DNA from: a virus
IMG/VR virus record: IMGVR_UViG_3300032291_002550
Span: 64,436-128,435 of that record
Direction: 5' to 3' (one strand)
Length of the DNA: 64,000 nucleotides
Shown here: in pieces, positions 27,805-53,277 of the stretch
Numbering within the stretch: position 1 is the stretch's first letter
Layout: the number at the start of each line of letters is the position of its first letter
Program-made: the position numbers and the translations under genes
Notes under the pieces: generated by a model
The model's input: only the letters and a program-made list of their open reading frames with translations
The model's database searches: none
Told to the model about the DNA's origin: nothing

Positions 27805-27936
27805 AGTCAGGTGGCGGAATGGTAGCCGCAAATAACGTGTAAGTGAATCTAACCCGCGAGGTAGTTGAGCGGAGAATAAAGCACGTGATTGAAGAAGTTA
27901 CTTATCTTCATACAGGTTCGAATCCCGTCCTGACTA
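27805..27936 (+). ncRNA. tRNA-scaffold RNA, copy 1 (132 nt)
   Basis: AGTCAGG/CCTGACT acceptor, D-arm GCGG-AATGGTAG-CCGC, T-arm ACAGG-TTCGAAT-CCCGT; extended insert in place of the anticodon loop. Confidence 0.75.
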
Positions 27937-28060
27937 CAAAAATTAAAATAATTAATAATCAATTGGTTATATAAGTCCTTGTAAATCAAGGGCTTTTTTT
28001 ATGTTAAAAATTTGGATTATTGGACAATTTATCTTATCTTTAAGTATAATAATAAAAGAA

Positions 28061-28315
28061 ATGAAAAATAGAAGAAATAGCCAGCAAGAAATAGTAGACT
28101 TTTTAACTAATAATAATTGTAAAACAGAGTCAGAAATTCAAGAATATGTTTGGGGCTATTATCGCTCAGAAAGTAATGAATCAAATAAAAAATATGCAGA
28201 TATTTTAAGACGTGCATTAAATGCTGGTAAAATTAAAAGAGCTAGATTAAAATTTAAAAATAAAGGCGAAACAAGATATTATTGGAGATATTATGTTGAT
28301 TTGAAAAATAATTAA
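28061..28315 (+). CDS. hypothetical protein (possible winged helix)
   Basis: ATG at 28061 after promoter. Confidence 0.6.
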   Translation: MKNRRNSQQEIVDFLTNNNCKTESEIQEYVWGYYRSESNESNKKYADILRRALNAGKIKRARLKFKNKGETRYYWRYYVDLKNN

Positions 28316-28381
28316 CATTTCTCTAGGAAATTTGAAAATTAATTCTTATCTTTAAGTATAATAAAAATAAAATATAAAAAT

Positions 28382-28645
28382 ATGAGTACATTTAAAACAT
28401 TACCAATGAATCAAATTAATGGTGGAGTTCAACATTTAGCATTTTACCCTAATGGCTATGGAGCTTCGATTGTAAAACATAGCTTTTCATATGGGCACGA
28501 GGATGGTTTATGGGAATTAGCAGTAATTAAAGGTACTGAAGAAGATTGGAATATATGTTATGATACTCATATTACATCAGATGTGCTAGGATATTTATCA
28601 GAATCGGATGTTGAAGATATATTAGTATTAATTCAAGCTCTTTAA
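28382..28645 (+). CDS. hypothetical phage protein
   Basis: PNGYGAS..KH.FSYG...GLWELAV...DVLGYL. Confidence 0.65.
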   Translation: MSTFKTLPMNQINGGVQHLAFYPNGYGASIVKHSFSYGHEDGLWELAVIKGTEEDWNICYDTHITSDVLGYLSESDVEDILVLIQAL

Positions 28646-28720
28646 AAAAGTAACAAAAAGGTTGTTTAATTGAAATAAATAACTTATCTTTAAGTATAAT
28701 AAAAAATAAAATATAAAAAT

Positions 28721-29038
28721 ATGAATAACGTAATTGTAATTGACGAAGTAAAATTATTATCTGGTAAAGGACGTAATGCTAAGTATTCGGCTATCGCTAA
28801 TGATGGAGAAGATTATGCATCAGAAATTTCTAAAGAAATCTTAAAACGTTCTGTAGAAGGATGGAATGGCAAGAGGATTGTGTATTTCAATCCAGAAGTA
28901 AAGAAATGGCAGAGATCAACAGCGCTTGATCAGATCAAAGCCTTGGCTCCAAAAGCCTCCAAAACAAAGACTCAAAGCGCACCCGTAGCTGATTCCGACA
29001 GTAACAGCGCAAGCGCATGCTCTAGCGCGGTAGAGTAA
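28721..29038 (+). CDS. stand-alone homolog of the N-terminal domain of the MoxR ATPase at 35670
   Basis: KRSVEGWNGKRIVYFNPEVKKWQR vs QRAIDGMGGKSSIVFNPNCEEWQR. Confidence 0.6.
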   Translation: MNNVIVIDEVKLLSGKGRNAKYSAIANDGEDYASEISKEILKRSVEGWNGKRIVYFNPEVKKWQRSTALDQIKALAPKASKTKTQSAPVADSDSNSASACSSAVE

Positions 29039-29345
29039 TCATCATATATCTTTTAAGGGCATTCGCCCATTATTATTATTAGTAAATCGCCCCTAGATCT
29101 TCGGATTCGGGGCTTTTTACTTTCAATACGATATTAGACCCCGGTTTCTATAAAAGAATATTGACTCTAATACGAAAGTTCATATACGCACAACTATACA
29201 GCTTGATTTTTACGTGTAACGTGTTGATTTTCAATGATTTTAACTATTTGATAATCAATCTAATAAAGTTACGGAAAGGTAAACATAAATTTGGAAATAC
29301 GAGAATATTCTCTTATCTTTAGGTATAATAATAAAAAGAAATAAT

Positions 29346-29549
29346 ATGATAACAGCAGAAGAGTTTATGTTAGAAAATTTGCAGAGCATGGATCAGCAAG
29401 AAGTAGAAAATGCAATGATTGAATTTGCTAGATTAAAAGTAGAAGAAGCAATTCATGAAATAGTTAATGCTGTAGATAATGAAGTTGAAAAAGATTTCAT
29501 AACAGAAGATCTTATCCGAAATGCTTATCCATTAGAAAATATAATGTAA
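29346..29549 (+). CDS. hypothetical protein (TAEEF...YPLENI family)
   Basis: paralog of 45686. Confidence 0.6.
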   Translation: MITAEEFMLENLQSMDQQEVENAMIEFARLKVEEAIHEIVNAVDNEVEKDFITEDLIRNAYPLENIM

Positions 29550-29608
29550 CAAATCGGTTGGAAATTTGAAATAAATAACTTATCTTTAGGTATAATAATA
29601 AAAAGAAT

Positions 29609-29824
29609 ATGAAAAATAAAATTAATGATTTAGGAATGATAATTGCTTTTGGTCCTTATAAGGTAAAATTATCTAGCAATGGACAAGTATCTTATTACAA
29701 GAATGGCCAATTAAGTAGAGTTGTTGATAAAGCAATTGACTTTGACAGTAAAGATTTATATGCACATGTATCAGAAATGGCTGACAGAATGGGTTATAAA
29801 GAATCAGATTTAAAGAAAGGATAG
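29609..29824 (+). CDS. hypothetical early protein
   Basis: own promoter. Confidence 0.6.
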   Translation: MKNKINDLGMIIAFGPYKVKLSSNGQVSYYKNGQLSRVVDKAIDFDSKDLYAHVSEMADRMGYKESDLKKG

Positions 29825-30040
29825 TATATGAAAGTAAGTAAAGAACAAATAGCAACAGGTTTATTAGTGGTTTATTTTCTGGCTGTCCTAATAATAGCAG
29901 TGTATATATCTAATTAACTGATAATCAATATTATATAAGTCCTTGTAAATCAAGGGCTTTTTTTATGTCCTGTTAAACATTTCTCTAGGAAATTTGAGCA
30001 AAAGATCTTATCTTTAGGTATAATAATAAAAAGGAAATAT

Positions 30041-30247
30041 ATGTCATTAGAAGTTAGAAAATATGAAAGCAACCCAGAATGGGATAGTCTTATAGTTAAA
30101 CAAAAATGGTCAACATGGACATTGGATAGTCATTCGGATGGAGATGTTGAAATATGCTGCACGACAGATGAGGGTGATACATCATTATTCCTTACCCAGG
30201 ATGAATTAAAATTAGTTATAGAATTTTTGCAAAGTAAAGTAAAATAA
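30041..30247 (+). CDS. hypothetical early protein
   Basis: own promoter. Confidence 0.6.
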   Translation: MSLEVRKYESNPEWDSLIVKQKWSTWTLDSHSDGDVEICCTTDEGDTSLFLTQDELKLVIEFLQSKVK

Positions 30248-30314
30248 TTAACATTTCGGTTGGATCTTTGAATCCTTTTCGGTATCTTTAGGTATAATAA
30301 TAAAAAGAAATAAT

Positions 30315-31250
30315 ATGAGTAACATTTTTGAAGCAATCCAAATTAAAGGTAAATTAGTCGCAAAAGAATTAGAAACAGGTAGAATAGCTAAAAAAGGCGA
30401 AATCCGTGATATTCAGATCCGAAATGCCTATAAGGAAAATCAACATTTATTAGTTGATCCTGTAAGTGGCAGAATTACCAGAATAGCAAAAGCTCCTGGA
30501 ACTATGTCAGTCCGTAAAGAAAATTTTGCTTCCGTTATCGCTAAAAGAGATCCTGAAATAATGTTTACCAATTTAAAAAACTTAACCAGAATGGTAGGAA
30601 AAGGAATCCAACCATCCTTAGTGGTTACAGGAATGGCTGGTATGGGTAAGACTCATATTGTAAAAGATACTTTGCAGCAATTAGGATTAAGAGAAAGTTT
30701 TGAATTCGTGCATTTTAAAGGAAGAGCTACTGCTGCTGGATTATATATTACCTTATATGAAAATAGCGATAAGATTGTTATATTAGATGATTGCGATTCT
30801 GTATTTAAAGATGACGATGCTGTAAATATTTTAAAAGGAGCTTTGGATAGTTATGATACACGTTATATTTCATATATTACCAGTAGAGAGTTAAAAGACA
30901 GTTATGGTAATGCTGTTCCGAAACAATTTAATTTTACAGGCCGAGTAATATTTATTTCTAACTATGAACAAAGTAGAATTGACGAAGCAATTAAATCTCG
31001 TTCTTTTGTTCAAGATATAAGTATGTCGACAGAACAAGTATTTTTGAGGATGGAACAATTAATTAATAAAATTGAGCCAGCAATTAAAAAGGAGCATAAA
31101 GTTCAAGCATTAGAAATAATGAAAAGTATAAACGAAAAATATGATGGTGTTGAAATTAATATTCGTTCTTTAATTAAAGCATCCAGAATAATTGCTATGG
31201 GTTTTGATAATCCTGAAATGGCTATATGCGAGCAGATTATATCTGCCTAA
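30315..31250 (+). CDS. AAA+ family ATPase
   Basis: Walker A GMAGMGKT, Walker B VILDDCD, IFISN, AIKSR. Confidence 0.8.
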   Translation: MSNIFEAIQIKGKLVAKELETGRIAKKGEIRDIQIRNAYKENQHLLVDPVSGRITRIAKAPGTMSVRKENFASVIAKRDPEIMFTNLKNLTRMVGKGIQPSLVVTGMAGMGKTHIVKDTLQQLGLRESFEFVHFKGRATAAGLYITLYENSDKIVILDDCDSVFKDDDAVNILKGALDSYDTRYISYITSRELKDSYGNAVPKQFNFTGRVIFISNYEQSRIDEAIKSRSFVQDISMSTEQVFLRMEQLINKIEPAIKKEHKVQALEIMKSINEKYDGVEINIRSLIKASRIIAMGFDNPEMAICEQIISA

Positions 31251-31365
31251 TAATCAATTAAATATAAGTCCCTGATTACCAGGGGCTTTTTTTATGATTT
31301 GTTAAACATTTCGGTTGGATTATTGAACAATTTATCTTATCTTTAAGTATAATAATAAAAAGAAT

Positions 31366-31569
31366 ATGAAAGAGATATTAATATGTATATTGTTACAATT
31401 TGTACTTTTTATACCATTCTATCTAATATGGAGGAATGACTGTAAAAAAATAGGAAAGAATAATTTGGCAGTAAGTTTAGAGGAAAGGTTTATTACTTGG
31501 ATTTTTCTTTGTCTTTTATTTACTATCTTATCATTATGCCCAATTTGGATATGTGGCTTTTTAAATTAA
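31366..31569 (+). CDS. small membrane protein
   Basis: two hydrophobic segments; own promoter. Confidence 0.55.
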   Translation: MKEILICILLQFVLFIPFYLIWRNDCKKIGKNNLAVSLEERFITWIFLCLLFTILSLCPIWICGFLN

Positions 31570-31642
31570 AATAAAATAATTAACATTTCTCTAGGAAATA
31601 CAAAATAAATCTCTTATCTTTAGGTATAATAATAAAAAGAAT

Positions 31643-31873
31643 ATGAGTATAGAAATTGTTAAAGGAAGCGTAGTTAAATTAAAAGAACGTTATGCTGAGG
31701 GAGAATTTAAAGGATTTTACAGAATTACTTCAATAAGAGGCTTATATGCCAATTTAGGAAGCGTATTTGGCAATACCATATACCATAAAAGAGTTCCATT
31801 AGAATGGTTAATAGAATGTGAAGAAGAATGGTATGCTAAATGGAGCCAAAGTGAAACTTATCAGTGTATGTAA
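31643..31873 (+). CDS. hypothetical early protein
   Basis: own promoter. Confidence 0.6.
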   Translation: MSIEIVKGSVVKLKERYAEGEFKGFYRITSIRGLYANLGSVFGNTIYHKRVPLEWLIECEEEWYAKWSQSETYQCM

Positions 31874-31924
31874 AAAATATCAAGGATAGCATCGGGCAAC
31901 CTTATAAAAAATGTAGCCGAATAT

Positions 31925-32029
31925 AGTCAGGTGGCGGAATGGTAGACGCTATCTAAAAGATCATATGAAAGGGTGATATAAGAGTGAAATGAATAAACCC
32001 ACTTACAGGTTCGAATCCTGTCCTGACTA
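31925..32029 (+). ncRNA. tRNA-scaffold RNA, copy 2 (105 nt)
   Basis: AGTCAGG-TG-GCGGAATGGTAGACGC...ACAGGTTCGAATCCTGT-CCTGACT-A. Confidence 0.75.
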
Positions 32030-32106
32030 CAAAAAAAAGTAACATTTCGGTTGTTTATTTGAAAGAAATATCTTATCTTTAAGTATAATAATAAAATAAA
32101 AAGAAT

Positions 32107-32322
32107 ATGGCAACTAGAAAAAAATCATTTTACATTGGCGAAAGATTTAATCCACAATTAAGTAAACCTTATTATAAAGCATATGGCCAATTAAGTAAAA
32201 CCGAAGCAAAAGAAAAAGCAAATCCTATATATGGATCAATGTATTTAACTTGTTTCGAAACGGAATCAGAATATACAATTGCATTGGATAAAATAAAAGC
32301 CGACGGCTTTAGTATTCGTTAG
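32107..32322 (+). CDS. hypothetical early protein
   Basis: own promoter. Confidence 0.6.
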   Translation: MATRKKSFYIGERFNPQLSKPYYKAYGQLSKTEAKEKANPIYGSMYLTCFETESEYTIALDKIKADGFSIR

Positions 32323-32434
32323 TTAAATAATTCAAAAATCCTAATTAAATTTTATTAATTTATATTTTTAAAATTTAATTAGGAATTTTGAAAGTAATAT
32401 CTTATCTTTAAGTATAATAATAATAAAAAGAAAT

Positions 32435-33253
32435 ATGACACAAACATTAGAATTAACCTCGGCAGAATTAAAATTAATTGAAAACAAAAGAAAGCAAGAT
32501 GCTTTAGAACAAGAAGCAGCAAAATTAAGAAAAGAAGCTAAGATTCAAAAAGAATCAATTGAAATTCAGAATTCAATTCTTAAAGAACAAAAAGAAGCTA
32601 ATTTGCAAGTCGCAGCAGCAACGGAATATTATAATGGATTAGTAAAGCTTGATCCTAAATATAAGTTGGAAGTTACGGAGCGCGAATTAAAAAAAGAAAT
32701 TAAAGATTATTCAGGCCCAGAAGCTATAGTCATAAAAAGTTTTAATTATACAATTAAGAACGCCCGAATCATATTATCTGATTCTCCTTATTATATAACA
32801 GTTGAAAAGCATATTGTATATACTGGTATGAGTTTCCGCGGAACAGATAAAGGATATAAAATGGAATTAAATGGTGGAGGATTTTATAGTGAAAGAAAAG
32901 TATCAAATCCAAAAACTATTAATGATAAGATAGTAAATAAAAGACAAGCAGAAATTAATGCAAAAATTGCGGAGCAAAAGAAAGCATCTGGTTTAGATAC
33001 AGCATATAATAACCTAGTAAATAAATACCCTGGAGCAACAATAATCAAATCAACAGAATGGGAAAGAAATTTATATGATAGAAAAGTCTCAGGAGAAACT
33101 ATTAATATTATTACCATTACATTACCCAATACCATTTCAATTAAATATAAAGTATATTCAGATGGTTCATTAGGAAGAAAAGAAATAAGATATCCTTTTA
33201 AAAATAATTTTGATTTATTAGACACATTAAATAATATAATCATACCTCAATAG
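32435..33253 (+). CDS. hypothetical protein with N-terminal coiled coil
   Basis: 272-aa ORF, own promoter. Confidence 0.65.
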   Translation: MTQTLELTSAELKLIENKRKQDALEQEAAKLRKEAKIQKESIEIQNSILKEQKEANLQVAAATEYYNGLVKLDPKYKLEVTERELKKEIKDYSGPEAIVIKSFNYTIKNARIILSDSPYYITVEKHIVYTGMSFRGTDKGYKMELNGGGFYSERKVSNPKTINDKIVNKRQAEINAKIAEQKKASGLDTAYNNLVNKYPGATIIKSTEWERNLYDRKVSGETINIITITLPNTISIKYKVYSDGSLGRKEIRYPFKNNFDLLDTLNNIIIPQ

Positions 33254-33371
33254 AAATTCTTTTTTTATTATATATAAGAGTAAGGGTAGTGTGTAAAAGC
33301 ATTATCCTTCTTTACTGTTACTTCATTCATGAATGAACGATCTATATATCATATAGCACAACTTTAATGCA

Positions 33372-33470
33372 TGGGGGGTCAAATGGGGTCACCCGGCGGT
33401 TGGTTATGGGGAGCCCGGGGGTTTAGGGGAGCCCTAATAAGGGGGTGGTTAGGGTGGGTGGTTAAACCGG
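33372..33470. other. G-run-rich tract (G-quadruplex potential)
   Basis: many G3-G6 runs in an AT-rich genome. Confidence 0.6.
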
Positions 33471-33534
33471 TTGTCACCGCACGGATAACTTTTTCGTCTA
33501 TATAGACCGCGGTTTGTGAAGTTTAGGGCAAGCC

Positions 33535-33642
33535 CTAACAAATCATTCAAGTACCTATCACATAAATCTAACAAATCATTCAAGTACCTATCAAATAAAT
33601 CAAGAATCAAGTAATTACCTATCACATAAATCAAGAATCATT
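33535..33642. repeat. tandem 31-33 bp iteron-like repeats
   Basis: CTAACAAATCATTCAAGTACCTATCA(C/A)ATAAAT x2, then a variant copy and a partial copy. Confidence 0.8.
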
Positions 33643-33843
33643 TACACACGCACGGGATACACATACACACATAATACACATATACCACAAAGAACTTCGT
33701 TCCTACAAATACCGAATACTACTACGGGTGCGCAGCGGTTAAAATTTTATACAATTGATTTTCAATGCTTTATATAATAATAAAAGAATTTGGTTGATAA
33801 ATTGAATTGTTTTCCTTATCTTTAAGTATAATAAGAAGATAAT

Positions 33844-34230
33844 ATGAAACAAAACGATAGTAAATACCATCAATTATATTTAGGTTTAAAAGATGCAGAT
33901 GACTATTTTCCTAAAGAATCTAGAAAAGAAATGTTATCCTTAATTAAGGAGTTATACAAAGAAAATCAAGATTTGTTAAATGAAGATGATGATAAAGGAA
34001 AATATGGTATAAGATATAAAACCATTGGAGAACTTTCGAAATGGTCTGATACAGGATATCAATTTTTTAGAAGTAAATCTAAAAGAGATGATGTATATGA
34101 TGATTGGATTAATGGAAGGTATTGGGATAAAATATTCGAAACTGAATTGCAATATCGAACCCCTTCGCCGAATGTACATGAGATTGTAAAAATATTTAAA
34201 GAAAGCGGTAATGTATATGATGAAAAATAA
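33844..34230 (+). CDS. hypothetical protein
   Basis: own promoter. Confidence 0.6.
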   Translation: MKQNDSKYHQLYLGLKDADDYFPKESRKEMLSLIKELYKENQDLLNEDDDKGKYGIRYKTIGELSKWSDTGYQFFRSKSKRDDVYDDWINGRYWDKIFETELQYRTPSPNVHEIVKIFKESGNVYDEK

Positions 34231-35086
34231 AAATATGAAAATAGGAGATAAAGTAAGATTTACAAATCCGGGTAGTTACTCAGCCCCTACAGGTTCAACA
34301 GCAAGAATAGTTAGAATTGAATCGCCAATGATTTACATAGAATGGATTGATAAAGGAGATAGTGGTCAAAGCAATGGACGTTATCTCTCAAAAGATTTTG
34401 AAGTAATCGAAGAAGAGTTAGAAGTATTACCTGAAAAATGGGCTATTAAAACTACAAGTGACACTAGGAAAATTATCAATGATTTTATGATTTCAAAAGG
34501 TTACGATACTGTATGGGAGTCTGATTATGTTGCTCATTACCCTTTCACTGTGGGTGGTGGTTCAGCTTTTGTTTCTGTTAGCGGCGGTTATACAGAAATA
34601 TCATTCGAAAATTTTGAAAAATTAGTATTAAACAAAGAAATAAAAACAACAACAAAAACAAAACCCATTATGTCAAAACAAAAATTAACAGTATCAATTA
34701 CGGAAGTATTAGAAATTCATAAAATTGCTTGTACTACTTGGAAAGAAACAATTGCTAAGTATTTAACAAGAGTAGATTCAGACCAAAATATTACTTTTAC
34801 TCAAGAAGAAGTAGATGCGATGTTTAAAGCAGCTACCTCAAGTCAATTACCGAAATTAGAAGATATATTTGGTGCTCAACATAAAGAACCTACATTAGAA
34901 GATATGGCTGATGGTAATCCATTATTTGCCATGCCTGGAGAATTTATTGAAGGAGCTGCTATGATTGAGGTAAGAATATCTAGCGAATATAAAGATAAAG
35001 CGTTTTGGTTAAATCATAATTATATCTGGGAAATTAAAAAAGATAGTAGAGGGACGTTAGTTTTAATTCCGACACCTAAAAACTAA
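34211..35086 (+). CDS. hypothetical multidomain protein (N-terminal KOW/SH3-like)
   Basis: KIGDKVRF...G.TARIV; LPEKWAIK module. Confidence 0.6.
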   Translation: MYMMKNKNMKIGDKVRFTNPGSYSAPTGSTARIVRIESPMIYIEWIDKGDSGQSNGRYLSKDFEVIEEELEVLPEKWAIKTTSDTRKIINDFMISKGYDTVWESDYVAHYPFTVGGGSAFVSVSGGYTEISFENFEKLVLNKEIKTTTKTKPIMSKQKLTVSITEVLEIHKIACTTWKETIAKYLTRVDSDQNITFTQEEVDAMFKAATSSQLPKLEDIFGAQHKEPTLEDMADGNPLFAMPGEFIEGAAMIEVRISSEYKDKAFWLNHNYIWEIKKDSRGTLVLIPTPKN

Positions 35087-35400
35087 TGAATATGAGTCAT
35101 AAGTGGTATATAGGGCAACCAATAGTAGCGATAAAAAATAGCAAATGTGGTAGAATTAAAAAAGGCCAAGAATTTACAATAAAAGGTCTAATGGGGTCTA
35201 TTTGTAAATGCGGTGATGTATTAATTGATATTGGGTTACGCAGCGATCATGATGGTTGGGGATGTTTTACCTGTAATACTTTTAGGTATAGTAATAATAA
35301 TTATTGGAAAAAAGAAAGATTATTTGCGCCAATGGATATAGATATTTCAGAGCTAACTGATATTTTAAAAGAACCAATTAACGAATTTATAGAAAGATAA
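35086..35400 (+). CDS. hypothetical Cys-containing protein
   Basis: CKC and CFTC motifs. Confidence 0.55.
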   Translation: MNMSHKWYIGQPIVAIKNSKCGRIKKGQEFTIKGLMGSICKCGDVLIDIGLRSDHDGWGCFTCNTFRYSNNNYWKKERLFAPMDIDISELTDILKEPINEFIER

Positions 35401-35402
35401 TC

Positions 35403-35588
35403 ATGGAACTAGTAAATAAAGCCTTTAAAATATTCAAAAAAATGCAAAAGTTGGACGATTCTGACTTTGAGTCGCAGGTCGAATGTCAATCCGGTATTTT
35501 TAAATTAATGTTGGGTATGACAGACGAAGAAATAAAGTTGTACAACAATAAATGTGACGATTTTCTTAAAGAATCTAAAAAAAGATAA
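35403..35588 (+). CDS. hypothetical protein
   Basis: ORF track. Confidence 0.5.
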   Translation: MELVNKAFKIFKKMQKLDDSDFESQVECQSGIFKLMLGMTDEEIKLYNNKCDDFLKESKKR

Positions 35589-35669
35589 AAAAAAAGGTTG
35601 GAAATATGAATTGTTTTCCTTATCTTTAAGTATAATAAAAGGAAATAATATTAAAAAAAAAGAAAAGTT

Positions 35670-36869: not shown

Positions 36870-37041
36870 AATTCTTTTCTTTTTTTATTATAGTAGAAAG
36901 GGTTATCTTTTATAAAGGTAGCCTAAACTACTGTAAATTAATACATTATAAGTAATTGATAATCAACCAGAAAAAGATTATATAATATTAGGATAATTGA
37001 AATGTTTTCCTTATCTTTAAGTATAATAAAAGGAAATATAT

Positions 37042-39195: not shown

Positions 39196-39420
39196 TTAGG
39201 CATTAAGGCAGATTTTAGGGGCTAATAAGGGAGATCTTCGGGTCTCCTTTATACTAATATGACCCTAATATAAAAGCGCGTATATGAGCGTTTAAAACAC
39301 TTTCTAAAGCATTAATAATCAATAAATTATAACTAGTTGATTATTAATTAGAAAAAATTATAGAAATGATTAGGAAATATGAAATGTATTCCTTATCTTT
39401 AAGTATAATAAAAAGAAATA

Positions 39421-40137: not shown

Positions 40138-40148
40138 AAAGAAATAGC

Positions 40149-40856
40149 ATGAAAATAAAATTAGAATTAAGTCAAAATATATTTTTTACATCCGACACGC
40201 ATTACAACCACAAAAACATTTGTCGCGGGGTAAGTAATTGGAAAGATATAAATGGTAATGTACCTATTAATCAAACTCGTAATTTTCAATCTCTAGAAGA
40301 GATGAATGATAGTATTGTTAATGCTATTAATAGTAAAGTAAGAGAAGATGATATTTTGTTCCATTTAGGTGACTTTTCTTTTGGTGGATTTGAAAATATC
40401 GAGGAGTTTAGGAGCAGAATTGTATGTAAAAATATACATTTAATATTAGGCAATCATGATCACCATATTGAACGTAATAAAGATAATATACAAAGATTAT
40501 TTAGTTCTGTAAATCAATGTCTAAGATTAAGTGTTTCTATTTATCCTGGTACGACATTATATAACGGCAATCATGATTTTATATTATCACATTATCCAAT
40601 TGCAAGTTGGCACAACATGAATGATGGTGTAATGCATTTGCACGGGCATGTTCATTTACCAGCACATTTAAAAATACATGAAGGTAAAGCAATGGACGTT
40701 GGTTGTGATGGTAACAATATGGTACCGTATTCAATAAACAATATTATATCTTTGTTAAATAAAAGACCTATAAAATGTTTAACATTACCTCAAGATCATC
40801 ACGAAGAAAGAATTGAAGGTAATGGAGGAAATAAAAAAGGAAGTTCAAGTTTTTAA
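40149..40856 (+). CDS. calcineurin-like metallophosphoesterase
   Basis: SDTH, LGD, GNHD, HYP, HGHVH. Confidence 0.85.
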   Translation: MKIKLELSQNIFFTSDTHYNHKNICRGVSNWKDINGNVPINQTRNFQSLEEMNDSIVNAINSKVREDDILFHLGDFSFGGFENIEEFRSRIVCKNIHLILGNHDHHIERNKDNIQRLFSSVNQCLRLSVSIYPGTTLYNGNHDFILSHYPIASWHNMNDGVMHLHGHVHLPAHLKIHEGKAMDVGCDGNNMVPYSINNIISLLNKRPIKCLTLPQDHHEERIEGNGGNKKGSSSF

Positions 40857-40925
40857 TTAAAAGTAAACATTTCGGTTGGAAATATGAAATGTTTTCCTTA
40901 TCTTTATGTATAAGTAAGAGATAAT

Positions 40926-41123
40926 ATGAGATTTATAAACGAAAAGGTACTTAGAGATGCATATTTTAACAATACAATGAAGCGTAAAACAAAATTTTTG
41001 TGGTTGCCAGTAACGATTGATGGAGAAACTAGATGGTTAGAGACTGCTATAATTGATTATAAAGTATTCAAAAAAGTAGGTGTATTTGATGTATATTTTT
41101 TTGGGAACCTTATTGTTTTATAA
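40926..41123 (+). CDS. hypothetical protein
   Basis: own promoter. Confidence 0.5.
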   Translation: MRFINEKVLRDAYFNNTMKRKTKFLWLPVTIDGETRWLETAIIDYKVFKKVGVFDVYFFGNLIVL

Positions 41124-41137
41124 ATAAATAAAAGTAT

Positions 41138-41338
41138 ATGAAACAGTTAACAGAACAACAAATTGAACAGTATAAAAGATTAGCAATACAAGAAACATCA
41201 ATCGAATCTTGCGGCGATGAATGGAATCCTTATGAAATAAGCGGTGGTAACTTTGATGATGCTTATTACGTAGGTTATAAAGATGCTGATATTGAAAATG
41301 CCCGTTTCATTTTACATTTATTTGAAATAGAATATTAA
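41138..41338 (+). CDS. hypothetical protein
   Basis: ORF track. Confidence 0.55.
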   Translation: MKQLTEQQIEQYKRLAIQETSIESCGDEWNPYEISGGNFDDAYYVGYKDADIENARFILHLFEIEY

Positions 41339-41340
41339 AC

Positions 41341-41601
41341 ATGTTTATAGAAAGATTTTTCAACCCGCAATTGCAAAATTCAAATGAATTTGTATTTTAT
41401 AATACAAAGAAAGCATTGGAACATTGCATATTAAATTATTCATGTATACGGCATTATTCTTTTAGAGGCGATCAATATATTAAATATAATGGTAAAAGTT
41501 TAATTTGGAATGATGGCAGTATAGTTGATAAAAGAAAATTGCCTAAAAATGATGGTTGGGGCAAATATTATTCAGAAATATATAATCATCAATCATTTTA
41601 A
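41341..41601 (+). CDS. hypothetical protein
   Basis: ORF track. Confidence 0.55.
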   Translation: MFIERFFNPQLQNSNEFVFYNTKKALEHCILNYSCIRHYSFRGDQYIKYNGKSLIWNDGSIVDKRKLPKNDGWGKYYSEIYNHQSF

Positions 41602-41607
41602 TAAAAT

Positions 41608-41681
41608 AGTCAGGTAATTCAATTGGATAGAAAGCCTATGCAGCGCAGCGGAAAATGTGGGTTCGAATCCCGCCCTGACTA
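41608..41681 (+). ncRNA. tRNA-scaffold RNA, copy 3 (74 nt, broken anticodon stem)
   Basis: AGTCAGG/CCTGACT acceptor, D- and T-arms; CCTAT/AGCGG anticodon stem does not pair. Confidence 0.7.
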
Positions 41682-41918
41682 CTATAACCTGTACCCTTGA
41701 AAAACTCGTATTATTCAAAAAGGTGTCATATTCAGAATTGGCCCACCTACTAAAGTAGGTGGCAGTATTAGGAGTACATTTTGATAGATAAGCAGGTTTA
41801 CACCGAAATAAAAGGGTATTAGAATATGGTGTAAAAAAAATATAACCCAGTTTCAGAAGAAACTACATTGACTGAAAAGTTTAACTGAGTAAGCAGAACC
41901 TCTTTTTGGGTTATAGAT

Positions 41919-42045
41919 AGTTAGGTGGTACAATTGGTAGCCATTAGTGTGGGATGAATATATACTCTGTCAAATCAATAACGTAATTGGTCAAATCCTA
42001 CTACGGGTGTATATAGCTAAACAGGTTCGAATCCTGTCCTGACTA
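41919..42045 (+). ncRNA. tRNA-scaffold RNA, copy 4 (127 nt)
   Basis: AGTTAGG...ACAGGTTCGAATCCTGTCCTGACTA. Confidence 0.75.
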
Positions 42046-42063
42046 CAAAATATTTTTAATAAA

Positions 42064-42384
42064 ATGAAAGAACAAATATTAACATTAGTTAAACACCCCA
42101 AATTCAATAATAATGGATTTAAGGGTTTATTTGAGAAGGAATGGAAACATAACTCAAAAGAAGATTTAAGGTGGTTGTTCTATCTAACAGAATTACAACA
42201 ATGGTTAAGGGATACTAAGGGTATTGAAGTTGAAATATACTCACTTAACTCATTAAGTTATGGTAAGATGTATGGTTGTTTGATTAATATTGAGGGTGAA
42301 AAAACTATTAGGTTAAATGATAGATTACTATACCTAACTATGTTAGAAGAAGGGTTATGTGAAGGATTAAAATTAATAAAGTAA
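42064..42384 (+). CDS. hypothetical protein
   Basis: ORF between scaffold copies 4 and 5. Confidence 0.6.
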   Translation: MKEQILTLVKHPKFNNNGFKGLFEKEWKHNSKEDLRWLFYLTELQQWLRDTKGIEVEIYSLNSLSYGKMYGCLINIEGEKTIRLNDRLLYLTMLEEGLCEGLKLIK

Positions 42385-42386
42385 AT

Positions 42387-42602
42387 ATGAAGCATTCGGA
42401 ATTAACAAAATCCATTTTAGAAAGTAATGGGATTACAAGTGAAAAGGAAAAGGATTTCTTCAAGGAATTGAGGGTATCACTTAGATTGGATTATGATATC
42501 CCAGCCCCTGAAGTAAGGAAATTAAATGATAATCAGGTTATTGAGAAATGGTATGAAATCCATTCAAAACCTGAGAATAGTATTGGGGGTAGTGTTGTTT
42601 AA
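42387..42602 (+). CDS. hypothetical protein
   Basis: ORF between scaffold copies 4 and 5. Confidence 0.55.
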   Translation: MKHSELTKSILESNGITSEKEKDFFKELRVSLRLDYDIPAPEVRKLNDNQVIEKWYEIHSKPENSIGGSVV

Positions 42603-42608
42603 AAAAAT

Positions 42609-42736
42609 AGTTAGGTGGTGTAATTGGTAATCACACCTTGCAAGTGAGTAATAGGGTAAGTGAGTCAATAGCACTGCTCGGCTTGATAGCCTCACGACAG
42701 GGAAACAAATTGCAGGTTCGAATCCTGTCCTGACTA
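42609..42736 (+). ncRNA. tRNA-scaffold RNA, copy 5 (128 nt)
   Basis: AGTTAGG...GCAGGTTCGAATCCTGTCCTGACTA; CCTTG/CAGGG and GTGAG/CTCAC stems enclose the insert. Confidence 0.75.
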
Positions 42737-42754
42737 CTAAATAAATAAAATAAT

Positions 42755-43330
42755 ATGAGAAATGAAGGTTCAGATTGGTGCATTAAACAACATGTAAATA
42801 CCAATCATTTTTATGATACATACTTACCATATCAGTTCCATTTACAAATGGTTGCGCAAGTATATGAAGATTTTAAACATCTTTTACCTAAAGACTTAAT
42901 AGTAACAGAAGAATCATATGGCCATGGTAGTTATGAAAAAGTAGATATTACGCATCAAGTAGTTAATATGGCTTGTTGGGGACATGATTTAATCGAAGAT
43001 ACCAGAACGTCTTATAATGACGTCTACAATAAGTTAGGAGTATATGTTGCAAATATTGTTTATGCCGTTTCTAATGAAAAAGGTAAGACCCGAGCCGAGC
43101 GCGCTAACGACAAATATTATGAAGGTATTAGAGAAACGCCGGGTGCTGTATTTGTTAAATTATGTGACAGAATAGCAAATGTTCAATATTCAAAAATGAC
43201 TAAGTCAAGAATGTTTGAAATGTATAAAAAAGAAAATGATAAATTTATGCTTTGTTTAGGTCGTGTATATCAAAATGATGGCCCTTACGAAGAAATGTAT
43301 CAATATTTAATTAATTTATTTAATGATTAA
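42755..43330 (+). CDS. HD-domain hydrolase, Mesh1/small alarmone hydrolase-like
   Basis: PYQFHL..V, GHDLIEDT, VKLCDRIANV. Confidence 0.7.
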   Translation: MRNEGSDWCIKQHVNTNHFYDTYLPYQFHLQMVAQVYEDFKHLLPKDLIVTEESYGHGSYEKVDITHQVVNMACWGHDLIEDTRTSYNDVYNKLGVYVANIVYAVSNEKGKTRAERANDKYYEGIRETPGAVFVKLCDRIANVQYSKMTKSRMFEMYKKENDKFMLCLGRVYQNDGPYEEMYQYLINLFND

Positions 43331-43387
43331 ATTAGGAAATATGAAATGTTTTCCTTATATTTAAGTATAATTAAAAAGAATAATAAC

Positions 43388-44272
43388 ATGAAAGTATTAA
43401 ATTTAGTATATCCTGAAAAATCGGATATAAAATTCAAAATATCAAAGTTTCCCGATGGGCAACAATCAATTACATTAGATATGGTTGAGGCAGATTTGCC
43501 AGATAAAATTACAGTAAGCATTGCTAGTAGATTTAATTCATTTTTAGATTTGGAACTTATCATTGCTGCAAATCAAGCGTTAAGAGAATTTTCTTATGTT
43601 GAAAATGTTAAATTGAATATACCTTATTTCCTAGGTGCGAGATCAGATCGTAAATTCGGAGATGGTACGAGTAACTATCTTAAAACAGTAATTTGTCCTA
43701 TCATTAATGCTCAGAAATTTTTAAGAGTAACCGTGTTAGATCCTCATTCAGATGTGTTAGAAGCATGCTTGGATAATTATCACAAACATAATAACTATCG
43801 TTTAGTTAAAGATGCTTTAACAGCAATTGATAATAAAAATGATGCTCAAGAAAGAATTTGCTTAGTAAGTCCAGATGCAGGTGCTTATAAAAAGATCTTT
43901 GACGTTGCTAAAGAATTTGGTATTAATAATATCATTACTGCAAATAAAGTTAGAGATATTAAAACGGGTCAAATTATTAGAACCGAGGTCCCAACTTTAG
44001 AGATGCATGAAGATCTTAAATACGTTATCATTGATGATATTTGTGATGGTGGTAGAACATTTGTTGAATTAGCAAAAGCAATGAAAAAACAAAGACCAAC
44101 TGCTAAAATTTATTTAGTTGTGACGCATGGTATTTTTAGTTCAGGATATGCACAATTAGGTGAATATTTCGAACAAATTTATTGTACCAATTCAATAAAA
44201 GATATTGGAGAAACTGAATATCATTGTCTTGAAAACATACCAACAAAAGTTAAACAAACAAACATATTTTAA
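43388..44272 (+). CDS. ribose-phosphate pyrophosphokinase-like protein (candidate NARP1 Adps)
   Basis: FPDGQ, PYFLGARSDR, DPHS, SPDAGA, IIDDICDGGRT, VTHGIFS; ATG at 43388. Confidence 0.85.
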   Translation: MKVLNLVYPEKSDIKFKISKFPDGQQSITLDMVEADLPDKITVSIASRFNSFLDLELIIAANQALREFSYVENVKLNIPYFLGARSDRKFGDGTSNYLKTVICPIINAQKFLRVTVLDPHSDVLEACLDNYHKHNNYRLVKDALTAIDNKNDAQERICLVSPDAGAYKKIFDVAKEFGINNIITANKVRDIKTGQIIRTEVPTLEMHEDLKYVIIDDICDGGRTFVELAKAMKKQRPTAKIYLVVTHGIFSSGYAQLGEYFEQIYCTNSIKDIGETEYHCLENIPTKVKQTNIF

Positions 44273-44273
44273 A

Positions 44274-44792
44274 ATGAGTTATCAAGAAATAGAAGGCGAT
44301 TTAATCAAATTAGCCAGAGAAGCTAAATTTGACGTAATAGTACATGGTTGCAATTGTCTTAGTACAATGGGCGCCGGAATTGCGCCGCAAATGGCAAATG
44401 CTTTTGGTTGTGATAAATTTGAAATGGAGAGATGGGGGCCGACAATTGAGAAATTAGGTTGTATCGATTATGAAACTGTTGTTCTTGGAGAAAAGACGAT
44501 ATGGTCTTTAAGTGACTACAAAAACAATCGTAATGAACCAGAATTAACTGTTGTCAATGCATATACGCAATATAAGTATGGTTCGAACCACAAAGATGGC
44601 ATTGCAAACCCATTTGACTATGAAGCATTCACGATATGTATGCGAAAAATGAACCATATCTTCAAAGGCAAGCATATTGGCATGCCAAAGATTGGCGCTG
44701 GATTAGCTGGAGGAGATTGGAATAGAATTAAGGACATTATCCAAGCAGAATTAAAAGATATGCAAATATCAGTAATAATTTATAAACCATAA
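44274..44792 (+). CDS. macrodomain (ADP-ribose binding/hydrolase) protein
   Basis: GDL, HGCNC..TMGAGIA, PKIGAGLAGGDW; ATG at 44274. Confidence 0.85.
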   Translation: MSYQEIEGDLIKLAREAKFDVIVHGCNCLSTMGAGIAPQMANAFGCDKFEMERWGPTIEKLGCIDYETVVLGEKTIWSLSDYKNNRNEPELTVVNAYTQYKYGSNHKDGIANPFDYEAFTICMRKMNHIFKGKHIGMPKIGAGLAGGDWNRIKDIIQAELKDMQISVIIYKP

Positions 44793-44811
44793 GAAATAAA
44801 ATATTTTAAAT

Positions 44812-44997
44812 ATGACCTTAAAGGAAAGTTTAAAAGTAAAAGAAACGGACATTTATGGATGTAGCAGTTGTAAAATTACCTCCGAGACGAAAGGCAGAAT
44901 GTGCCCTTGTCCACGTGGTAGTTGTGATGCTGAAATTATAGGACAAAAAATAATAATAACAGAAATTAAATCGTATTCAAATGGAAATAAGAAATAA
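44812..44997 (+). CDS. small Cys-rich protein
   Basis: CSSC...CPCPRGSC. Confidence 0.5.
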   Translation: MTLKESLKVKETDIYGCSSCKITSETKGRMCPCPRGSCDAEIIGQKIIITEIKSYSNGNKK

Positions 44998-45102
44998 AAA
45001 TGGCAATACAATATTCGAAATGGATGATGTGTTAATATTACTTTTAGCATGCGTTATAGCATTTTGTATAGTGGGGCATTGTTAAAAATAAACTATCAAG
45101 AA

Positions 45103-45258
45103 ATGAAAATATTTAAAGACATATTAGCACCGGCATATTTAGGATTTGCACTATCATATTTTGCAAACATATCATGGGACAATTCGAAATTTTATGCTAT
45201 CATTATCCCATTCTATTTTCTTGTAAAAATATCTAATTTTAATAAAGACGAAGAATAA
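45103..45258 (+). CDS. small membrane protein
   Basis: ATG at 45103; hydrophobic. Confidence 0.45.
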   Translation: MKIFKDILAPAYLGFALSYFANISWDNSKFYAIIIPFYFLVKISNFNKDEE

Positions 45259-45686
45259 TGAATAAATTACAAAAATACATCGATCGCTTAACGAGAGAAT
45301 GGAAGCAGCATAAAAATATCATCATTGCTGTTGATTTTGATGATACAATTAGTCCTTGGGGACTAAACACAACACAAGAATGTAATTGGGTTGTCGAAAA
45401 ATTAAAAACATATCAACAACAAGGAGCTTATATTGTAATATTTACTGCTTGTAATTCTGATAGATTTGAAGATATTAGCAATTTCTGTAGTCAGAATGAT
45501 TTAATGATTTCAAGTATTAATAAAAATGCTTTTGAATTGCCTTATGGTAATAACGGAAAGATATATGCTAATGTATTTTTAGATGATAGAGCTGGGTTAT
45601 TTGAAACCATTGAAATATTAGATGGTGCTTTATGTAATATGAAGGCTCATGGAAATGAAATACAACATATAGGAGAAATTGCATAA
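45258..45686 (+). CDS. HAD-superfamily hydrolase
   Basis: AVDFDDTI, KIYANVFLDDRAG. Confidence 0.7.
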   Translation: MNKLQKYIDRLTREWKQHKNIIIAVDFDDTISPWGLNTTQECNWVVEKLKTYQQQGAYIVIFTACNSDRFEDISNFCSQNDLMISSINKNAFELPYGNNGKIYANVFLDDRAGLFETIEILDGALCNMKAHGNEIQHIGEIA

Positions 45687-45883
45687 TGAATATATTAACA
45701 GCAGAAGAATTTTTAAAACAAGAAGGTTGGTATAATGAAGAATGTTCTGTTAATTATTTAATGATTAAATTTGCTAAAATGCACGTAAAAGCTGCTTTAG
45801 AAAAGGGAGCTAAAAGTTATATAATGTATGAAAGCGATAGAGAAAAAATAAGAAATTCTTACCCTTTAGAAAATATAAAATAA
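45686..45883 (+). CDS. hypothetical protein (TAEEF...YPLENI family)
   Basis: paralog of 29346. Confidence 0.6.
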   Translation: MNILTAEEFLKQEGWYNEECSVNYLMIKFAKMHVKAALEKGAKSYIMYESDREKIRNSYPLENIK

Positions 45884-46350
45884 TGAATAACGTATTTACA
45901 CCACCAATGAACATATCTCTAAGAGATAGAAGAAAACATTCAATATTCCTAGCCGGTTCCATAGATATGGGAGCATCAGAAGATTGGCAAACTTATGTGA
46001 TTGATAAAATTAAATATAAAAAAGCACATAATTGGTTTAATCCTAGAAGGTTAGATTGGGATAGTTCTTGGATTCAAGAATTAGAGAATCCTCAATTTAA
46101 TCAACAAGTTAAATGGGAGATAAATGCTCTAAAAAAAGCTGATATAATTGTTATGAACTTTACAAGTGGGTCCATTTCGCCCATATCGTTACTTGAATTA
46201 GGAATGTTTGCACATACAGGTAAAATGCTCGTTTGTTGTCCAAAAGAATTTTGGAGAAAAGGAAACGTAGATATTATATGTGAAGAATATGACATACCTT
46301 TATTCGAAGATTTAGATAGTTTATTATCTAGATTAGAACAAATAATATAA
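45883..46350 (+). CDS. nucleoside 2-deoxyribosyltransferase-like protein
   Basis: IFLAGSI...DWQ, FNPRR.DWD, QVKWE, SPISLLELG. Confidence 0.75.
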   Translation: MNNVFTPPMNISLRDRRKHSIFLAGSIDMGASEDWQTYVIDKIKYKKAHNWFNPRRLDWDSSWIQELENPQFNQQVKWEINALKKADIIVMNFTSGSISPISLLELGMFAHTGKMLVCCPKEFWRKGNVDIICEEYDIPLFEDLDSLLSRLEQII

Positions 46351-46430
46351 TTTTTAAAAAAATAATTAAAAAAAAGGTTGGAAATATGAAATGTTTTCCT
46401 TATCTTTAAGTATATTAATAAATAAATAAT

Positions 46431-48305
46431 ATGAGTTTTAAAATAAATAGTTTATATCTTACAGACGGATATAAGGTTGGTCACAAGAAAATGTTAGCTA
46501 AAGGTACAACAAAGCTATACGGAACATGGATTCCTAGAAGTACTAAACATGCCCCTAAGGGTGTTACGAAAATTGTATCATTCGGTCAACAATTGGTTTG
46601 GAAATGGTTACATGATGAATTTGAAGAAAATTTCTTTTTTACGGAACAGAAAAAATTAATGAACTTTTCTGACCCGGCCAGAACAAATCAAAAAAGTGAA
46701 TTAAAAGCTAAAGCGCTTCAATTCACAAAAGATATGTCCCTATACTTAGGTATGGAGTATGACGGTAAACATTTCGAAGAATTGTGGGACTTAGGTTACT
46801 TACCTATTAAAGTAAAAGCATTACCTGAAGGTATTGAAACAGGAACTAATATTCCTCATATGACCTTTATAAATACAGTTGATGGGTTTGCTTGGTTAAC
46901 ATTATATCTTGAAACTGTAGTTAGTTCATTAGCTTGGAAACCAAGTACAGCAGCAACTATTGCTAAATTGTATAGAAGACAAGCTGAAGAATGGGTAGCT
47001 AAAACAGACCCAAGTAATATGTGGTTAGTTGATTTTATGTGTCATGATTTCTCTGCTAGAGGATTAGACCCGATGAGTCAATACCTAATTGGTTTAGGTC
47101 ATGCTACATCATTTAAAGGTAGTGATACATTACCTGTTATTCCTGCTGCTAGATATTTTTATGGAGTTAAAGAAGATGAAATGCCTATCTATAGTGTTAA
47201 TGCGTCAGAACATTCAGTATCAACTACAAAGATTTTTACAGTAGGTGAACAACAAATGATTGCTGATTGGTTAAAGGATTTTGATAAAGGTATTTTATCA
47301 ATAGTAGCTGATACATTTGATTTATGGAAACTAATTACAGAATATTTACCAGCTAATAAAGAAGCTATTATGGCTCGTGATGGTAAATTAGTAATTCGCC
47401 CTGACTCTGGAGATCCTGTTGATATTATTTGCGGATTAAATATTCCCGAATATGATAGTTTAGTTGATGCCGAGGAATCATTTAGAGATGAGTTGTATAA
47501 TAACCAAGTGCATGGAGAAGATATGTTTTCAATTGATGAAACGCGACTGGTAAAAGTTGAAGATAAATATTATAAATTAACAGCAGATGTTGATTGGAAC
47601 AGATATGATAAACAATACTATTTTATTGAATGTATTAGTTTTGGCGTTATAGAAGTAGAATCAACGCCAGCCTTTAAAGGCGTAATAGAATTACTTTGGG
47701 ATATATTTGGCGGGACAATTAACGAACAAGGATTCAAAGTTTTAGATCCACATATCGGAGCCATTTATGGTGACAGTATTACACCAGAACGTCAAGTTCA
47801 AATATATGAAAGATTAGCTGCTAAAGGATTTGCATCGACTAATATTGTATTAGGTGTAGGTAGTTTTACTTATCAATATAATACAAGAGATACATTAGGA
47901 TTTGCTGCTAAAGGCGCTTGGTTTGAGGTTGAGGATAGAATTGTATTTTTTGCTGCTAAAGGCGCTTGGTTTGAGGTTGAGGATAGAATTGTATTTACTA
48001 ATAAAAATGGTAATCTTGACGAAGAATTTGTAAAAACTGCTTATAATATTTATAAAGATCCAATTACAGATGATGGTACAAAGAAATCATTAAAAGGTTT
48101 ATTACAAGTAGAAGAAGTTAACACTTATAAAGGTGGTGATAAAGTAAAAACAGATTATATAGTATTACAAGAATGTACCCCTGAAGAAGAAAATAAAGGA
48201 ATGCTTCAAGTAATTTATGAAGATGGTAAATTCTTTAATCAAGTTACTCTAAATGAAATTAGAGAAAGATTACAAAGTGCTATAACAATAGCTATAGGAA
48301 AATAA
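46431..48305 (+). CDS. nicotinamide phosphoribosyltransferase-like protein (candidate NARP1 Namat)
   Basis: TDGYKVGH, HDFSARG, SEHSV, VADTFD, IRPDSGDP, IYGDSI, KDPITDDGTKKSLKG. Confidence 0.88.
   Translation: MSFKINSLYLTDGYKVGHKKMLAKGTTKLYGTWIPRSTKHAPKGVTKIVSFGQQLVWKWLHDEFEENFFFTEQKKLMNFSDPARTNQKSELKAKALQFTKDMSLYLGMEYDGKHFEELWDLGYLPIKVKALPEGIETGTNIPHMTFINTVDGFAWLTLYLETVVSSLAWKPSTAATIAKLYRRQAEEWVAKTDPSNMWLVDFMCHDFSARGLDPMSQYLIGLGHATSFKGSDTLPVIPAARYFYGVKEDEMPIYSVNASEHSVSTTKIFTVGEQQMIADWLKDFDKGILSIVADTFDLWKLITEYLPANKEAIMARDGKLVIRPDSGDPVDIICGLNIPEYDSLVDAEESFRDELYNNQVHGEDMFSIDETRLVKVEDKYYKLTADVDWNRYDKQYYFIECISFGVIEVESTPAFKGVIELLWDIFGGTINEQGFKVLDPHIGAIYGDSITPERQVQIYERLAAKGFASTNIVLGVGSFTYQYNTRDTLGFAAKGAWFEVEDRIVFFAAKGAWFEVEDRIVFTNKNGNLDEEFVKTAYNIYKDPITDDGTKKSLKGLLQVEEVNTYKGGDKVKTDYIVLQECTPEEENKGMLQVIYEDGKFFNQVTLNEIRERLQSAITIAIGK
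47901..47996 (+). repeat. exact in-frame 48-bp tandem duplication in the NAMPT-like gene
   Basis: FAAKGAWFEVEDRIVF encoded twice by identical DNA. Confidence 0.9.
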
Positions 48306-48313
48306 TAAGGGTT

Positions 48314-48438
48314 AGTCAGGTGGCGGAATGGTAGACGCTACCCAGATAACAGCCGAAAGGTGGGGATTAATCAGAATAGTTATTCTGAAATGCACTAACG
48401 AAACAGATTAATTACAGGTTCGAATCCTGTCCTGACTA
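48314..48438 (+). ncRNA. tRNA-scaffold RNA, copy 6 (125 nt)
   Basis: AGTCAGGTGGCGGAATGGTAGACGC...ACAGGTTCGAATCCTGTCCTGACTA. Confidence 0.75.
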
Positions 48439-53239: not shown

Positions 53240-53277
53240 AAAAGAAAATAAAATTAACTTTTTTACATATTAATATT

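Follow-up and report, generated by a model that had tools for sequence, protein, structure and literature searches.

tRNA-shaped elements with hypervariable interiors in a freshwater phage genome, and their likeness to the tRNA-like stable RNAs of phage T5

Two small RNAs of phage T5, RNA1 (144 nt) and RNA2 (125 nt), are annotated in record AY543070 as 'tRNA-like stable RNA with unknown functions', and their genes lie among the phage transfer RNA (tRNA) genes and small open reading frames (ORFs). In phage T4, the species 1 and species 2 stable RNAs (rnaC and rnaD) are also small stable RNAs of unknown function, encoded in the phage tRNA cluster. Here we describe six tRNA-shaped elements in a 64,000-nt stretch of phage DNA (the window; bases 64436-128435 of IMG/VR virus record IMGVR_UViG_3300032291_002550, a complete genome of 196,980 bp with terminal repeats and 29.8% G+C that comes from freshwater metagenomes). 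We class these elements among the phage tRNA-like stable RNAs, which are known as a kind but have hardly been characterised. Judged by sequence, their closest known counterparts are T5 RNA1 and RNA2, which on direct comparison share with them an acceptor pairing, a D-arm, a T-arm and a long interior (70-75 nt in the T5 RNAs) that lacks an anticodon arm. The Leu-type D-arm core of RNA1 is the same as in the elements, and so are the T-arm and discriminator A (A73) of RNA2. The acceptor sequences and inserts of the T5 RNAs are unrelated to those described here, however, and T5 has two or three such genes whereas our elements belong to a large, exchangeable repertoire. T4 rnaC, with a canonical T-arm at its end and a short terminal pairing, is a looser analogue; the T4 RNAs have no Leu-type D-arm, a weak acceptor helix and no sequence relation to the elements, and rnaD as folded here has no tRNA features.

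Three further systems resemble the elements in part. The YrlA and other Y RNAs of bacteria and phages, which Ro60 proteins bind, are, like the elements, non-decoding mimics of the D arm, T arm and acceptor stem of tRNA (PMC4201824), and for one of them cleavage by RNase P and addition of CCA are described (Chen et al. 2014, PMC4201824). In YrlA, however, the helix that the RNA ends form binds Ro60, and rsr lies next to the genes, whereas the ends of the elements form an acceptor stem and the elements have no link to a Ro60 gene. The engineered tRNA scaffold (Ponchon and Dardel; PMC3753655) keeps the acceptor, T and D arms and carries a structured RNA in place of the anticodon stem-loop, as the elements do, and such RNAs are stable, correctly processed and modified in the manner of a tRNA in Escherichia coli (PMC3753655); this scaffold is a laboratory construct, so that the likeness indicates how the elements could work and not kinship. 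Class II tRNA-Leu of bacteria or phages (RF00005) shares with the elements its D-arm, elbow nucleotides, A15-U48, A73 and T-arm, at Rfam scores of 37-39 bits, but the elements lack an anticodon stem-loop, are non-decoding and, in five of the six cases, measure 105-132 nt.

The 21-nt T-arm/acceptor end common to the elements is matched six times on the plus strand of the window with up to two mismatches, against none expected from 100 shuffled sequences. The six elements lie at 27805-27936, 31925-32029, 41608-41681, 41919-42045, 42609-42736 and 48314-48438, with lengths of 132, 105, 74, 127, 128 and 125 nt, each on the plus strand between plus-strand ORFs. In all six, the 5' strand AGUYAGG pairs with the 3' strand CCUGACU, which is followed by A; each is preceded by a T at -1 and contains a D-arm and a canonical T-arm. 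The D-arm is of the Leu type in three copies (27805, 31925 and 48314), and the last 25 nt are identical in four (31925, 41919, 42609 and 48314). None lies in the tRNA island of this phage, at 52992-60152. An initial annotation of the window had described six elements with this acceptor helix and preceding T, lengths of 74-132 nt, the same distribution of D-arms and 3' ends, and a location outside the island, and these features are confirmed. Two more copies elsewhere bring the phage genome to eight: a seventh at genome positions 32982-33103, with an extra insert in its D-loop, and an eighth at 33279-33370, which together follow closely on a tRNA-Pro.

The elements thus have the acceptor, D and T arms of tRNA with its conserved tertiary nucleotides, and a 5-bp anticodon stem with a 7-nt loop (U33, purine 37) is absent from the standard place. 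The element at 27805, which starts 7 nt after the stop of the upstream ORF, has an enlarged two-helix domain and a variable-arm-like hairpin in place of the anticodon arm; its T-stem contains an A-C mismatch. Even the shortest, at 41608, which has a class-I-like D-arm and starts 6 nt after a stop codon, lacks an arm with a 5-bp stem and 7-nt loop. ARAGORN, one of the checks proposed in the initial annotation, calls none of the six a tRNA, in agreement with its claim that a canonical anticodon arm is missing. The Rfam tRNA model (RF00005) scores 37-39 bits for four elements, among them those at 31925 (38.1 bits, with an insert of ~56 nt) and 41608 (39 bits), and 26 bits, below threshold, for that at 41919, whose 5' acceptor strand AGUUAGG includes one G-U pair. 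No other Rfam family matches the elements even at E up to 1, so that a known RNA family within an insert was rejected.

The same 3' end occurs in more than 119 uncultured viral contigs, often in several copies per contig. The family was surveyed by pattern scans and insert-anchored searches, and we extracted 175 distinct copies of 70 to ~180 nt, in which the constant acceptor, D and T arms (the chassis) enclose interiors that fall into 154 clusters, 140 of them singletons. Many further members are found in contigs of sequencing runs from the same lakes. Anticodon-less elements with other acceptor sequences, sometimes with the same insert, occur in the same phages, and AGUCAGG therefore marks a dominant subfamily and is no absolute requirement. 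The suggestion that constant tRNA-type ends enclose hypervariable inserts is thus borne out as a real family. Its inserts are no more anticodon-like than chance: ARAGORN calls a tRNA in 19 of 148 real copies and in 17.4 of 148 after the inserts are shuffled. This weakens the earlier proposal that the elements are decoys for anticodon nucleases, which is unlikely because the inserts do not resemble anticodon arms beyond that level. A few real-tRNA-like members, Lys-UUU and Ile-UAU, sit on the same frame with the same ends.

The exact chassis is absent from 50,697 cultured-phage records. Among 185,579 species genomes, the ends occur on only ~20 contigs of metagenome-assembled genomes, where they form a chassis with an insert, and in one genuine tRNA-Ser(CGA), that of Algimonas/Litorimonas, which matches by chance. 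The chassis accordingly copies no host tRNA, and host tRNA mimicry was rejected. Our literature search found no paper describing the family; the skipping-rope tRNA mimics of a 2026 preprint are different RNAs. The earlier statement that no named family fits therefore stands for Rfam and the literature searched, but not for architecture, which T5 RNA1 and RNA2 share. These anticodon-less, tRNA-bodied RNAs form a large phage family that is apparently undescribed.

Base pairing in the family is under selection. The element at 27805 has orthologues in two other viral contigs (L054:3679-3815 and L304:7339-7471), and the three fit a cloverleaf consensus with 36 pairs. Five of these 36 pairs, acceptor pair 1:72 included, are kept through changes on both sides; compensated pairs were thus found instead of the random decay that the initial annotation had considered. 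In contigs L306 and L309, an insert identical to that of 48314 is carried on an acceptor helix that differs at four pairs, on both strands, and members of an insert cluster can differ by an entire stem, both strands of which have changed in a complementary way. Both insert and acceptor helices are therefore maintained by compensatory changes.

The elements are also mobile as units. Of 27 same-insert pairs, 19 (from 11 of 15 clusters) combine elements of 83-96% identity with 120-nt flanks no more alike than background, and the 2.5 kb on each side of these elements show no detectable protein homology. Among pairs of at least 90% identity, flank homology is lacking altogether in 14 of 20 for the elements but in 4 of 19 for ordinary tRNAs drawn from the same loci. 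Whole elements of ~90-100% identity are thus found in unrelated gene surroundings much more often than ordinary tRNAs are. The insert type of 48314 recurs nearly unchanged in 13 further viral contigs, in about seven contexts and also on a second acceptor helix. The similarity begins at +1 or -1 and ends just past the discriminator and C, with flanks that are unrelated over 3 kb, and the seven insertion contexts share no duplication beyond the T at -1 and the C after the discriminator. Some same-insert pairs have homology on one side only, which places recombination breakpoints at the element ends.

Fixed sites show turnover, in that the insert is exchanged, lost or decayed. At the junction between the NAPRTase-family gene and the RNA ligase gene, where the element at 48314 lies, 66 relatives have no element, and contig L200 has a 132-aa ORF in this slot. 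The element at 42609 starts 6 nt after a stop codon and ends 18 nt before an HD-phosphohydrolase gene; upstream of that gene, the relative L226 holds an unrelated insert in this chassis, whose 3' acceptor strand is damaged there. A distantly related version of the 42609 insert lies at L278:3815-3940. L306 and L307 have the upstream flank in common and different inserts at the same site. Given this mobility of whole elements and their turnover at fixed sites, they are accessory cassettes, each spreading as a precise unit, with insert exchange at the constant ends. In the related phages L306 (300-400) and L307, ~90 nt without an obvious ORF are conserved directly before the syntenic chassis element, and these may be another structured RNA.

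Such dynamics could also arise without any RNA function, if the elements were selfish or neutral mobile tRNA-derived cassettes, or recombination linkers, whose ends promote gene conversion between co-infecting phages and shuffle adjacent genes. Whole elements in unrelated neighbourhoods, the variable presence at syntenic sites including decayed copies, the breakpoints at element ends, and the insert swaps at fixed sites (two independent cases) would all be expected of them, and the Lys-UUU and Ile-UAU tRNAs with the same ends are what gene conversion would yield; no partner gene is linked to the elements either, as no phage protein recurs near more than 9 of 149 loci. However, the compensatory substitutions in insert and acceptor helices indicate selection on RNA pairing, and core tertiary nucleotides are retained. 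Every copy within a genome has a different insert, with almost no same-insert duplicates per genome (none in this one), unlike what transposing elements produce. Of inverted ends such as those of transposons or miniature inverted-repeat transposable elements, the elements have only their 7-bp acceptor strands; the genes linked to them include nothing like a transposase, no reverse transcriptase is encoded, and no target-site duplication is visible. We therefore regard the selfish explanation as quite unlikely. Mobility through a reverse transcriptase was rejected, as the genome has none and the copies lack an encoded CCA end, one variant excepted.

With respect to expression, a 36-nt repeat consisting of a stem-loop and TATAA is present in seven copies in the window (22730, 35600, 36991, 39373, 40878, 43335 and 46380), against none in shuffled sequences. 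Genome-wide it has 14 copies, all on the plus strand and just upstream of genes and tRNA blocks, and it is probably the repeated promoter of this phage. The elements lie within units headed by this promoter-like repeat. The copy at 40878-40913 (+) heads a unit with the elements at 41608, 41919 and 42609, and that at 46380-46415 (+) heads a unit of the NAPRTase-family gene, the element at 48314 and the RNA ligase gene. Spacing to the neighbouring genes is tight: in the family, 40 of 185 elements start 5-10 nt after a stop codon and 37 of 185 end 15-25 nt before the next ATG (18 nt for that at 41919). The position inside promoter-defined units and this spacing imply co-transcription with the mRNAs and excision from them. 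The 1.8-kb block at 40930-42760 is itself bounded by the 36-nt repeat and is replaced by unrelated DNA in contig L225, where the slot of the 42609 element holds the promoter-like repeat only; in this the repeat resembles the promoter/stem-loop repeats of T4-like phages.

The flanks of the elements follow the pattern of the real tRNAs of this phage. In all 28 genes called by ARAGORN in the genome, N73-C74 is followed by an A-rich run, and T is the commonest base at -1; the elements have the same T at -1, N73-C74 and A-rich run. Because the phage's own tRNAs share this pattern, tRNA-type maturation of the elements appears plausible. One may then ask whether cleavage is all that they are for, that is, whether they serve as mRNA punctuation, being only RNase P/Z sites at which polycistronic transcripts are cut, so that the cistrons on either side are stabilised or uncoupled. 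Their close fit between stop and start codons, their place in promoter-defined units and their tRNA-like flanks agree with this, but any tRNA or a minimal acceptor/T hairpin would suffice for such a task. Punctuation leaves unexplained the 20-130-nt inserts, which covary and travel with the chassis into unrelated contexts, and relatives have the same gene junctions without an element. The conservation of the same insert in unrelated gene contexts thus weakens the pure form of this alternative, raised in the initial annotation, and we consider it improbable.

The chassis retains more of tRNA than its outline. U8, A14, G18G19, U48, the T-loop and A73 are kept in the family; in a profile of 150 insert-distinct members, A73 is found in 137, U48 in 130 and U8 in 139, G18G19 is essentially invariant, and U20/A20a are retained in 72-79%. 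In E. coli, the determinants of leucyl-tRNA synthetase (LeuRS) are these same nucleotides and the anticodon is not required; a tRNA-Leu without anticodon and variable arms is still charged (PMC9976931). Judged by the rules of that review, the LeuRS sequence determinants (A73, A15-U48, G18G19, A20a and the D/T-loop contacts) occur in ~87-100% of the 150 members, and by this comparison the bacterial LeuRS recognition set is intact in the chassis. The pair 3:70 is U-A and not the G3-U70 alanine identity pair of transfer-messenger RNA (tmRNA), a class that also has a tag reading frame and pseudoknots. The elements do not qualify as tmRNA, and the Rfam tmRNA model matches only at 51500-51860.

With this in mind, the best reading, which we hold tentatively, is that the elements are non-decoding, tRNA-bodied small RNAs, a natural form of the 'tRNA scaffold'. 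According to this reading, an element would be transcribed within an operon from the repeated promoter of the phage, and its constant acceptor, D and T arms fold into the upper body and elbow of tRNA-Leu, which sequence and covariation support. Host RNase P, 3' trimming enzymes and the CCA-adding enzyme would then release a stable RNA, a step to which the flank pattern and the annotation of T5 RNA1 and RNA2 point. The insert, which stands where the anticodon arm and some of the variable arm would be, would be the working part, acting in trans on a host or phage partner and independently of the neighbouring genes; the recurrence of one insert in unrelated contexts and the different insert of each copy within a genome speak for this. 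Since nothing of the bacterial LeuRS recognition set is missing from the chassis, one may further speculate that the RNA is charged with leucine, so that its 3' end would be protected or LeuRS or EF-Tu engaged; this addition is doubtful. The scaffold idea of the initial annotation is thereby supported in part, in that maturation is plausible from the shared flanks and the interior is non-decoding, while release of a stable RNA, CCA addition and action in trans are inferences.

Several observations weigh against this interpretation. The near-identity of the ends across very different phages exceeds what folding and processing demand, and may come from recombination or recent spread and not from function. 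We found no shared motif among the inserts, and their stability relative to shuffled sequences is modest, with a mean z of -0.97 across the family and values from -2.2 (48314) through -1.9 (31925) to 0.0 (41919) for the six window copies; thermodynamic stability alone is therefore not convincing as evidence. The longest antisense matches of the phage's eight inserts in its own genome are no longer than those of shuffled inserts, and BLAST of four inserts (41608, 41919, 42609 and 48314) against 301 Bacteroidota genomes gave no match. The search for antisense targets that the initial annotation had proposed has thus come back empty, and both antisense regulation of phage genes and a host-derived or host-targeting nature of these four inserts were rejected. 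In the same BLAST, matches were limited to the nicotinamide adenine dinucleotide (NAD)-salvage genes and the 3' end of the tmRNA. One metatranscriptome run contains chassis-bearing contigs of other family members; these are contigs without RNA ends and may reflect DNA carry-over, so that they are a weak hint of a discrete RNA at most. Finally, the phage genome encodes no CCA-adding enzyme, and element maturation would therefore depend wholly on the host.

If the inserts have no target, the chassis may be what matters. In such a model the tRNA body acts as a decoy or sponge that soaks up host factors recognising the acceptor end or elbow, such as tRNA nucleotidyltransferase or pyrophosphokinase toxins, LeuRS or EF-Tu, and the insert is a tolerated, stabilising filler. 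The LeuRS and elbow determinants in ~90% of members (PMC9976931), the many copies per genome and the lack of an insert target in the phage antisense and 301-genome searches all fit this picture. So do the neighbouring NAD-salvage and RNA-ligase genes, which are typical of counter-defence or repair regions and which agree with the counter-defence surroundings that the initial annotation had described. A filler, however, would not need to be conserved with compensatory changes in unrelated contexts, and for a sponge plain duplication would serve, whereas every copy in a genome has a different insert. The inserts, moreover, resemble anticodon arms at the chance rate only. A decoy role for the tRNA body is thus unlikely.

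Returning to the tRNA-bodied RNAs with working inserts, their exchange between phages raises a more specific possibility, which we put forward with reserve. The elements could form a shared, horizontally exchanged library in which a leucine-chargeable tRNA chassis makes the host mature and protect the inserts, while the inserts, swapped at the constant ends, serve as trans-acting effectors, for example aptamers or decoys directed against host factors or defences. Such a library would be the RNA counterpart of the protein 'moron' or anti-defence gene cassettes.

A different partner is suggested by the tRNA island itself, which contains a divergent Ro60 orthologue of 548 aa at 57007-58653 (+). 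This ORF scores 28.4 bits with TROVE, above the Pfam cut-off, and its Ro60-type vWA domain falls just below; along almost the whole of its length it matches two TROVE proteins of solved structure, 9l5y and 9kop, and homologues ~38% identical are present in two other viral contigs, L330 and L331. The elements might then be phage analogues of Y RNAs that work with this protein, an idea favoured by its presence in this phage and by the ability of bacterial and phage YrlA RNAs to mimic tRNA, to be cut by RNase P and to be given CCA (PMC4201824). However, a Ro60 homologue is encoded in only 2 of the 50 viral records that bear a chassis, and in none of the 11 with a completeness of at least 90%. The YrlA motif GNCGAAN0-1G is not enriched, as 4 of 110 inserts contain it where 2.4 would be expected; the element ends form the acceptor stem, and Ro-binding strands are absent; Rfam gives no Y RNA or YrlA match, including beside the Ro60 gene; and the elements lie 8-29 kb from that gene. 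A joint action of elements and Ro60 is accordingly very improbable, and Ro60 as a general partner of the family was rejected on the co-occurrence, motif and Rfam results.

Should the elements prove to be processed and to act in trans, phages would hold a very large and nearly unexplored repertoire of small structured RNAs made through the host tRNA pathway, with up to a dozen or more elements per lake phage, exchanged among phages. This would offer an explanation for the decades-old 'stable RNAs of unknown function' of T4 and T5, provide a natural precedent for the tRNA scaffold of biotechnology and make it worthwhile to look for RNA factors in counter-defence or host takeover. With its LeuRS set intact, the chassis also raises a sharp question, namely whether RNAs without an anticodon are charged with leucine in vivo. 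In addition, since tRNA finders miss the elements or assign chance anticodons to them, tRNA counts for phages are slightly wrong.

The genes and RNAs around the elements add some detail. A NAD-salvage pair is formed by a PRPP-synthetase-like gene at 43346-44272 (+) and the NAPRTase-family gene at 46431-48305 (+), which encodes 624 aa and is 69-76% identical at the DNA level to genes in several Bacteroidota genomes; this similarity is compatible with a Bacteroidota host. An 86-aa ORF at 41341-41601 (+), just 5' of the element at 41608, has 83.6% DNA identity with part of LR756502, a 642-kb record of an uncultured huge phage. The tmRNA (51500-51860, +, 72.5 bits) and a GOLLD RNA (52547-52969, +, 256 bits) lie directly upstream of the array of 26 tRNA genes. 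Within the island, ARAGORN reports at 55694-55768 (+) a tRNA of undetermined type with a two-base 'anticodon' (gg), for which Rfam gives 33.9 bits. Between two tRNA-Leu genes there is a 370-nt gap without an ORF (59130-59500, +). It holds a tRNA-like stretch at 59213-59283, which scored 33.8 bits with the Rfam tRNA model in a first scan and has no ARAGORN call. Directly 5' of this stretch is a 5-bp hairpin with a GAAAGA loop (~59190-59207), and the same hairpin, with its stem compensatorily changed, also precedes an alternative-acceptor element in contigs L306 and L309.

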